Assembly (NCBI GenBank): GCA_963804745.1
Contig: CAWDRY010000006.1
Coordinates: 8,668-40,667, forward strand
Source: an uncultured Gemmataceae bacterium
GTDB taxonomy: Bacteria > Planctomycetota > Planctomycetia > Gemmatales > Gemmataceae
Direction of reading: 5' to 3'
Length of the DNA: 32,000 bases
Notes under the pieces: model-generated
What the model saw: only the letters and a program-made list of their open reading frames with translations
The model's database searches: none
Told to the model about the DNA's origin: nothing
Made by a program: the position numbers and the translations under genes
Part shown: positions 16,770 to 18,222 of the stretch, one piece after another
Numbering within the stretch: the stretch's first letter is position 1
Layout of the letters: every line of letters begins with the position of its first letter

Positions 16770-17063
16770 TCAGCAACAATCCGTATCCGAACAGCAGCAG
16801 CTAGACTTGCCGCCCCGCAGTGCCCCCTTGATGATCGCCGTGGCACAACCAACGCCCGAGCGGACCGAGATGGCTCCTGTGGGGCAGTTCTTGGCGCAGG
16901 CGCCACACTCCATGCAGGCATCACGGTCGGCGATCCTCGCCTTCCTGGTCTCAATGGCAAACACAGCATGCGGGCAGACGTTGACGCACATGCCGCAACC
17001 GTTGCACCGTGATTCCACGAGAGTCAAAGTCACGGAGTCTGACAAGTAGCGCAAGCCAACCAT
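16770..17063 (-). CDS. hgcB: HgcB, 2x[4Fe-4S] ferredoxin of the mercury-methylation pair
   Basis: GGGAGGA RBS and ATG at 17063, 11 nt after the hgcA stop. 97 aa: CNGCGMCVNVCPH, then DRDACMECGACAKNCPTGA, with a C-terminal Cys tail SSCCCSDTDCC. Confidence 0.85.
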   Translation of the reverse strand: MVGLRYLSDSVTLTLVESRCNGCGMCVNVCPHAVFAIETRKARIADRDACMECGACAKNCPTGAISVRSGVGCATAIIKGALRGGKSSCCCSDTDCC

Positions 17064-17074
17064 CACCGTCCTCC

Positions 17075-18222
17075 CTATGCGAACCTTCCAGCTAGCCAAA
17101 GGACCATACCGCATACTGCGGCCGTAATCTGGAGCGGGATGGCGACGCGGGTCTCGCGGCGGACACCCGAGAGCGAGGTAAAGGTCGTGGCCCCGGTGAA
17201 ATTCATGGCCATGAAGCTGGCCATGGGCAGGAATGAACAAGCACCAGCCGGCCAACCCGAGCCAGCCGCCCAGGAAACCCGGAGACCGGCCCCAGAAACC
17301 AATCATTCCCAGGACGAATGCCAAACCGATCCACGTTCCCTTGAGAGCAAATGCCCGCCCCGGAAGCCAGGGGAGCAGTGCGGCGGTCAACACGATGCTG
17401 CCCAGGTACGTTGCGAGGAAGCAGGGCGGCCGAGCAGGCTCCTACGTACAGGGTACGCGAAATCGAGTAGCCATCCGCACCCAGTCCGGCCAGGATGAAG
17501 AAGATGGCCATCGTCCAGCATGCCCACTTCATCGAGAGGAGCACCTCCACGGGGGCCAGCACCAAGCGATCCCGAAGGGGGAACTGCACCTGCCGCATCG
17601 ACGGCGTGGCCGTCATTCCGGCAGCAAGGAACGCAGGCAGGTCCTCGGCACGCACTGGGCCGTACACGACACGAAATCCGCTCCGCTTCTTCACCTCGTG
17701 GGCGGCTACGCCAGCCGCGCCAAGCTGCGGCACAACCAGGGTGCGATGAGTGACTACTTCTGCCAGTCTGGCTGCCTCGATCCGACAGACCAGCTCGTCG
17801 GTTCCAAAAGTGCCCTTGCCGGCAGCGCACCAGACGTTGACACCCCGGGTATCCAGGACAAGAATCCAGGCGTCCAACCCGCCGAGATTGGAACGGAGCC
17901 GGTCGAAACTCAGCTTGTAGTTCGCCGAAACCAGGACCGGCGAGTCTGATCCGGGGGTGCCGACCGCGTAAAGCCCCGGCGGGACGCAGTAGCTCATTCG
18001 CCCGATGGCCCAGCGGACCATACACGTGCCGAGATGGTCGGCAAGCCGCAACTGCGTGCCAATCCTGGGGACCGGACCAATCGCGGACGCCACGGTTCCT
18101 GTGATCCAGGACGCACGACAGGATTGTTCCTGCTCACCGCACGGATCTCGCTGGCAACATGCGTCTGTGACAGCCTGTTGAGGCTTGCAACAGCATTTTG
18201 CAGACAATTCGGATTCTTTCAT
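17075..18222 (-). pseudogene. hgcA: HgcA corrinoid methyltransferase, two frame switches in the TM domain as sequenced
   Basis: LVLDTRGVNVWCAAGKGTFGTDELV is the cap-helix signature (Cys codon 17827-17829). Supporting blocks: PGLYAVG, SPVLVSANYKLSFD, VVPQLGAAGVAAHEV, FRVVYGPVRAEDLPAFL. The TM part continues in ORF 16770..17393 (LTAALLPWLPGRAFALKG) and ORF 17075..17302 (MNFTGATTFTSLSGVRRE...RFA*). Confidence 0.85.

Follow-up and report, generated by a model that had tools for sequence, protein, structure and literature searches.

A Pirellulales-like hgcA-hgcB locus in a metagenomic contig, with hgcA probably split by two consensus insertion errors

Among the closest described systems for mercury methylation are the HgcA and HgcB proteins of Pseudodesulfovibrio mercurii ND132 and Geobacter sulfurreducens, reportedly presented by Parks et al. 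in 2013. In the present study, we analysed a stretch of 32,000 nt of contig CAWDRY010000006.1 (assembly GCA_963804745.1), called the window throughout, which carries on its minus strand an hgcA gene followed by hgcB. The pair shares with the two reference systems the gene order, the cap-helix signature N(V/I)WCA(A/G)GK with the cobalt-ligand cysteine, a CdhD-type corrinoid domain followed by five transmembrane (TM) helices and, in HgcB, two CX2CX2CX3CP motifs, a cysteine at position 73 and a C-terminal CC. It differs from them in that its HgcA extension is cysteine-only (CCC and CC) whereas theirs is PCUGP with selenocysteine, in an extra CCC at residues 89-91 of HgcB, and in its predicted Planctomycetota host. 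Functional importance has been assigned to C93 of HgcA and to C73, C94 and C95 of HgcB (PMC11588087). As assembled, the hgcA of the window is spread over three reading frames. We consider, with a probability of about 0.88, that this is a standard Pirellulales-like hgcAB locus in which hgcA was split by two single-base insertion errors of the consensus.

The HgcA proteins of Planctomycetota and Pirellulales metagenome-assembled genomes are nearer still. Three of them, for which NCBI gives the name 'mercury methylation corrinoid protein HgcA' (P0005, P0079 and P0045), have 58-71% full-length identity to the frame-corrected protein and a length of about 371-387 aa, and at their N-terminus they carry the same CC...CC arm, with PWI.G.V.TP.G.VP.V.T after it. 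In the protein search the best named HgcA matches were Pirellulales, Planctomycetia and Planctomycetota proteins, and many homologues were full-length, about 370-390 aa. The host genome is therefore predicted to be Planctomycetota, Pirellulales-like. A scan of contigs of the GTDB representatives gave no HgcA closer than about 61% identity. Planctomycetota hgcA genes are routinely reported from metagenomes (PMC12484752), and the present locus adds one more, set amid arsenic, chromate and thiol-redox genes, to a large existing catalogue. The parts of the locus are as follows.

17075..18222, minus strand: hgcA, frame-corrected; 381 codons plus a TAG stop at 17077-17075, encoding a corrinoid-binding domain and five TM helices
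18109..18222, minus strand: cysteine-rich N-terminal extension (HgcA residues 1-38), ahead of the conserved WI.G.V motif
17815..17838, minus strand: cap-helix signature NVWCAAGK, HgcA residues 129-136
17419..17420, minus strand: frameshift site 1, an extra T behind codon 268, midway through TM helix 2
17224..17227, minus strand: frameshift site 2, one base too many near codon 332, midway through TM helix 4
16770..17063, minus strand: hgcB, intact, encoding a 97-aa dicluster ferredoxin

The hgcA gene opens with an ATG at 18222-18220, which sits 25 nt past the stop of a chromate-transporter-like gene, and its translation begins MKESELSAKCCCKPQQ (a longer reading of the N-terminus is MKESELSAKCCCKPQQAVTDACCQRDPCGEQEQSC). 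Along the protein, PGLYAVG, SPVLVSANYKLSFD, NVWCAAGK, VVPQLGAAGVAAHEV and FRVVYGPVRAEDLPAFL follow one another in this order before the first hydrophobic segment, and Cys132 of the cap helix is encoded by codon 17829-17827. All these blocks, and the cysteine at that codon, had been named in the original prediction, an earlier reading of the bare sequence that proposed the hgcA-hgcB pair. The ATG of hgcB (17063) opens 11 nt after the TAG of hgcA on the same strand. HgcB has its cysteines at 20/23/26/30, 50/53/56/60, 73, 89-91 (CCC) and 96-97 (the terminal CC); the two CX2CX2CX3CP motifs are CNGCGMCVNVCP at residues 20-31 and CMECGACAKNCP at residues 50-61, and an identical protein exists in public collections. 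The earlier description of an intact 97-aa ferredoxin with two such motifs, a CC tail and an 11-nt spacer was thus accurate. An Rfam scan of the whole window at the gathering threshold gave zero matches, and a promoter and terminator scan around the hgcAB locus gave background level only.

The hidden Markov model search that had been proposed as a check was run with NCBIfam models, and both equivalog cutoffs were passed, as expected for a true hgcA-hgcB pair. The frame-corrected HgcA scored 433 bits (E 6e-130) on NF040863, for which the cutoff is 275, over profile positions 1-324 of 325; HgcB scored 128 bits on NF040864 (cutoff 99) over positions 1-93 of 93. The uncorrected 339-aa HgcA product also exceeded the cutoff with 328 bits, yet it covered positions 1-203 only, so that about 105 bits and the entire membrane domain are regained when both frame corrections are applied. 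The Pfam scan found the CdhD corrinoid domain in HgcA (42 bits) and Fer4 domains in HgcB. In an alignment of 51 sequences, N129, V130, W131, C132 and A134 of the cap helix were invariant. HgcA has every sequence feature of the family except that, as assembled, two +1 insertions interrupt its single open reading frame (ORF), and HgcB combines a score above its cutoff with both cluster motifs, Cys73 and the C-terminal CC. Judged by its gene content, the locus is a genuine, standard two-gene mercury-methylation module, from which methylation of Hg(II) is predicted.

The corrinoid domain of HgcA is homologous to that of CFeSP, as the CdhD match and sequence-level PDB matches to 2h9a and 2ycl (both E 3e-11) demonstrate, and the gene could accordingly be taken for a paralogue that does not methylate mercury, of the HgcAB-like fusion type or of the CFeSP/AcsC corrinoid protein type. 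A fusion is also brought to mind by the raw ORF at 16770..17393 on the minus strand, in which the second hgcA frame runs without a stop and in frame into hgcB to give 207 aa. This ORF is spurious, being a piece of the HgcA membrane domain joined to HgcB, and a gene caller could take it for an HgcAB fusion. In the corrected sequence, however, hgcA is parted from hgcB by the TAG stop and the 11-nt spacer. The original prediction had held that a grouping with CFeSP or with fused paralogues would speak against HgcA; the scores fall on the other side, with 202 bits on the HgcAB-like fusion model NF043039 (cutoff 285) and 70 bits on the AcsC model NF003195 (cutoff 306), where the C-terminal corrinoid domain alone aligns, against 433 bits on the HgcA model (cutoff 275). 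The large subunit of CFeSP, AcsC/CdhE (PDB 2h9a, 2ycl, 4djd), resembles the window protein in the sequence and fold of the corrinoid-binding domain, but it is without a TM domain and without the cap-helix cysteine ligand and has another partner, whereas the protein of the window possesses both NVWCAAGK and five TM helices and stays under the AcsC cutoff. A paralogue is for these reasons very improbable.

The structural results agree with HgcA. Hydropathy of the frame-corrected protein gave five hydrophobic segments (225-247, 258-287, 290-309, 316-341 and 358-378), which are found in this form only. An AlphaFold2 model of the same protein, built with 51 homologues, had a mean predicted local distance difference test (pLDDT) of 85.3 and a predicted template modelling score of 0.77, with long helices at 222-244, 254-285, 291-312, 319-339 and 350-380. 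In a fold search of the PDB, the top match was the HgcAB integrative model 9a0b_A (E 1e-19, 45% identity), and large subunits of CFeSP came next. No experimentally solved HgcA was found in the PDB, only the deposited integrative HgcAB model and the CFeSP structures.

For the analysis of the split, two relatives of the window were available: L082 (ENA ERZ25039512, contig_44984), with 96.7% nucleotide identity over 6.2 kb, and L001 (ENA ERZ25039519, contig_67086), with about 88% nucleotide identity. In the window, the first hgcA frame passes after ...YVGACSAALL into non-homologous sequence and meets a stop at 17203. The homologous continuation LATYLGSIVLTAALLPWLPGRAFALKG lies in the second frame from about 17420, and the third frame, from about 17225, reads ASFMAMNFTGATTFTSLSGVRRE...GRFA* and ends at the TAG. 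The claim that the membrane domain is readable only over three frames stood, as did the first switch, predicted near 17425 and located at 17419/17420. The second switch, predicted near 17240, had to be moved to 17224-17227 (GCC-C-ATG), and the join proposed there (...WCLF/LPMASF...) was incorrect. At site 1, the window has GCC CTG CTT CC where L082 has CTG C-T CC and L001 has CTG T-T CC; in short, GCTCC in the relatives is GCTTCC in the window, with the extra T at 17419/17420. At site 2, the window has CCT GCC CAT GG, L001 has GCC -ATG and L082 has GCA C-TG, with the extra base within 17224-17227. Removal of both insertions gives a single ORF of 381 codons that reads SAALLLATYLGS at one join and WCLFIPA(M/L)ASFMAMNF at the other, and the true hgcA would be this one ORF.

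In the three-way alignment, neither insertion is shared by L082 or L001, so that both are private to the window, and 13 further homologues also read through hgcA in a single frame. The window hgcA is, as assembled, the sole member of the alignment with its membrane domain (TM2-TM4) broken by frameshifts. In the corrected protein, 22 of the 22 invariant columns past residue 268 are kept in the 51-sequence alignment, and both junctions lie within unbroken helices of the model (254-285 and 319-339) with 10-residue block-mean pLDDT of 94-97. Since the conserved protein goes on past each shift and no stop interrupts it, the HgcA frame could be imagined to be restored at the two sites by recoding, for instance by programmed ribosomal frameshifting. 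The shifts are not conserved, however, as the relative with 96.7% identity and all the other homologues use one frame for the same residues. A slippery heptamer was not seen at either site, and a pair of independent +1 events within the same gene would have no precedent in the HgcA family. We regard recoding as the least probable of all the explanations, with practically no weight.

The selection test used the Nei-Gojobori method on the corrected alignment and covered the 113 codons that follow shift 1. Between the window and L082, the corrected frame has 9 synonymous differences and 1 nonsynonymous difference, giving an omega (ratio of nonsynonymous to synonymous rates) of 0.04, whereas the two alternative frames gave omega of about 3. 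Between the window and L001, omega was 0.33 in the corrected frame and 0.56 and 1.85 in the others. These values indicate that the region past shift 1, which a real shift would leave untranslated, was under purifying selection in the corrected frame for essentially the whole of the window-L082 divergence. From the Poisson upper limit on one nonsynonymous change, set against an expected neutral ratio of 2.8:1, a pseudogene phase would occupy at most about 10% of this divergence, by our own rough bound.

Indels are not confined to hgcA. Over 16,395 aligned columns, the window and L082 differ by 671 substitutions, 41 indel events of a length not divisible by three (non-3n) and 4 events of 3n length. 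By majority rule over about 11 kb, the non-3n indels private to one sequence numbered 11 in the window, 24 in L082 and 31 in L001, part of which in L001 may be true intergenic differences. With 11 events in about 11 kb, our Poisson estimate for the 1.15-kb hgcA is about 1.1 private indels, and 2 were observed, so that hgcA is not enriched for indels. The relatives carry different ones in the same genes: +A near window position 17709 and a deletion/insertion pair near 18130 in hgcA of L082, and -G at 17977 in hgcA and -C at 16894 in hgcB of L001 (in their own coordinates, about 9356 and about 8930 in L082, and 10219 and 11299 in L001). Other genes of the window are broken as well. The chrA-like gene has lost 1 nt at 19195, while it differs from L082, where ChrA is intact with 414 aa, by 2 substitutions in 1.24 kb; the methyltransferase gene has indels at 20067, 19675 and 20212; the lipoamide-dehydrogenase-like gene is cut within its dimerisation domain; and DGC and thioredoxin genes are likewise hit. 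About 2.5 frameshifting indels per kb in otherwise constrained coding sequence are not compatible with real, tolerated mutations. The two insertions in hgcA would thus be part of a window-wide load of random 1-nt indels, as is typical of unpolished or low-coverage long-read metagenome assembly. The record names contig_67086 and contig_44984 resemble, by their naming convention, what we take to be Flye-style long-read assemblies. Small-indel frameshifts are described as a recognised problem of long-read metagenomes, and as a mark of error-prone long-read consensus, in two sources (10.1101/2021.08.23.457338; PMC9262707).

A preference for homopolymers, as a signature of slippage or of nanopore error, was considered and rejected: a run of identical bases is changed by 13 of the 31 single-base indels, near the level expected by chance (about 44%, our own estimate).

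Taken together, the private nature of the insertions, the different indels of the relatives, the selection in the corrected frame and the broken genes across the window favour an artefact, and we hold with high confidence that the three-frame split of hgcA arose from consensus errors of an error-prone, probably long-read, assembly and not from gene decay. The original prediction had left two alternatives, a decaying hgcA beside an intact hgcB or technical indels in a Planctomycetota-like putative Hg methylator, and it is the second that is strongly favoured.

The first alternative, in which both insertions are real and recent and hgcA is a fresh pseudogene truncated in TM helix 2 beside an intact hgcB, is the strongest of the rival explanations. 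The insertions are present in the sequence as given, and a truncation there would be inactivating, as the TM domain is reported to be necessary for methylation (PMC11588087). Some points also weigh against our interpretation as a whole. Both sites can be described as short runs lengthened by one base (T to TT at site 1, possibly CC to CCC at site 2), a change that real replication slippage produces too. The artefact call was drawn from assembled sequences, and the long-read origin was argued from the record names of the relatives. The selection test bounds a true frameshift to a recent date and is compatible with one. Furthermore, we know of no Planctomycetota isolate that has been demonstrated as an Hg methylator, and the word 'methylator' for the window is a prediction from gene content. 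If the insertions were real, a Pirellulales-like population would have been caught in the loss of its mercury-methylation capacity, and metagenomic counts of hgcA would overestimate functional methylators. A recent pseudogene has to be reconciled, however, with an omega of 0.04 in the corrected frame past shift 1 between the window and L082, with the restriction of both indels to the window, with a similar type and density of indels in other genes of the window and in both relatives, with the lack of enrichment in hgcA, and with a chrA gene that is frameshifted despite only 2 substitutions. On this balance, we consider it improbable, though less so than the paralogue and the recoding, and we retain the interpretation of the split as two consensus errors.

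The consequences for annotation are direct. In NCBI and ENA, the window gene stands only as P0001, the truncated 339-aa product of a 47,703-bp contig, which passes the HgcA cutoff. As a result of their own single-base indels, the public gene calls of both relatives are also wrong: hgcA of L082 was called as a 196-aa fragment, and in L001 the HgcA product P0002 (372 aa) has an N-terminus scrambled by a frameshift, while its HgcB was called at 76 aa. The annotation lesson outweighs the biology, and the main value of the locus is as a cautionary example for hgcA surveys on long-read assemblies. Surveys of hgcA and hgcB in long-read metagenomes need frameshift-aware gene calling, and apparent 'hgcA pseudogenes' in such data are not to be taken as gene decay.

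Next to hgcB on its downstream side, a proC-like gene (pyrroline-5-carboxylate reductase family; 15843-16621, minus strand) breaks into two frames at GCGCCCTGG^CGCTGGG, with the junction near 16441-16455. Unlike the shifts in hgcA, this frameshift is the same in the window, in L082 (about 10443-11219) and in L001 (12169-12948), whereas the homologues, 258-259 aa long, are encoded in one frame and have ...PDAPWLLGQM... at the junction. Each half is under purifying selection, with omega of 0.34 and 0.17. Most likely, one base was lost systematically at a CCTGG (Dcm-like) motif in each of the three assemblies; less probably, the frameshift is real and conserved.

The N-terminus of HgcA had been called unusual in the original prediction for its seven cysteines in 35 residues, including CCC and CC. 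The count holds (C10, C11, C12, C22, C23, C28 and C35), but the feature is already described and typical of the family. At least one CC is present before GLYAVG in 64 of the 85 close homologues, commonly as two clusters about 10 residues apart; with 9 cysteines before GLYAVG, the window HgcA has the most in this set. Among 81 hgcA loci of GTDB representatives from many phyla, a crude read-through of the upstream sequence gave CC in 40 and CU in 8, and all 8 of the CU cases were in Deltaproteobacteria-type records. In the study of Haft (bioRxiv 10.1101/2022.07.06.499078), some HgcA proteins carry N-terminal extensions with CC motifs and most others, when read through UGA, gain a PCUGP (Cys-Sec, where Sec is selenocysteine) extension ahead of the originally annotated start, which brings HgcA to 363-400 aa; a 'packing' of extra cysteines is noted in the non-Sec forms, and a metal-binding role of the extension is offered there as a hypothesis. 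The window protein, with 381 aa, CCC at 10-12 and CC at 22-23, belongs to this CU/CC extension type. Its vicinal cysteines stand upstream of the conserved core and include CCC-K-P. In contrast to the extensions of Haft, the window has no in-frame UGA, and its vicinal cysteines form two clusters, about 10 residues from each other. The arm is conserved in L082 and, except for C28, in L001. It lies outside the NCBIfam profile, for which the match begins at residue 51, and residues 1-10 and 15-34 have a pLDDT below 50 in the model and are predicted to be disordered.

In two HgcA homologues, P0076 and P0085 (in the range of 458-474 aa), an N-terminal Thioredoxin_3 domain (PF13192) is fused to HgcA. 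In the window and its relatives, Thioredoxin_3 is encoded by a separate gene nearby.

From established knowledge of the HgcA/HgcB family, the following mode of action may be proposed. HgcA would act as a membrane-anchored corrinoid protein in which Cys132 of the cap helix ligates the cobalt; HgcB, as a 2x[4Fe-4S] ferredoxin, would return the corrinoid to its reduced state, and the handling of Hg(II) would fall to the vicinal cysteines at the C-terminus of HgcB. The disordered CC/CCC arm of HgcA would be an all-cysteine version of the PCUGP extension of the family and a putative thiolate metal-binding arm. By analogy with the C-terminal CC of HgcB, it is plausible that this flexible arm captures Hg(II) or hands it over.

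The hgcAB pair is set among metal(loid) and thiol-redox genes (9162-15831 and 19591-29134 of the window), and most of this arrangement is common to L082 and L001. The neighbours include an ACR3 arsenite efflux transporter (449 bits), an ArsC of the low-molecular-weight-phosphatase type, two ArsR/SmtB regulators, a ChrA-family transporter, an S-adenosylmethionine-dependent methyltransferase, a MacB-type ABC exporter and a DUF1573 protein, together with a lipoamide-dehydrogenase/MerA-like flavoprotein with GcvH and OsmC, three DGC-domain proteins and thioredoxins. The chrA-like gene (18248-19491, minus strand; 7573-8817 in L082) is nearly identical in these two sequences, with the 2 substitutions already given, while the flanking genes are about 3-4% different, and L001 lacks it at the syntenic position. 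The pattern suggests that chrA was recently inserted, or exchanged between close lineages.

Further from the locus, an ORF at 6612-7670 on the minus strand encodes a highly repetitive protein. Its tandem array (6803-7469) has about 44 copies of a 15-nt unit that give (A/V/Q)(T/P)NP(Y/F) pentapeptide repeats, and after the array come cysteine repeats of the CGKPxCDKP type, which seemingly continue out of frame. The Pfam scan of this protein gave only a weak high-sulfur keratin match. In L082, a G+C-rich palindromic insert of 43 nt (CTCTCACCCCTGCCCCTCTCCCACCGGGAGAGGGGCGGGGTGAGGGG, at 16640-16682), which is not present at about 9855 of the window, looks like a small element of the repetitive extragenic palindrome (REP) or miniature inverted-repeat transposable element (MITE) kind.

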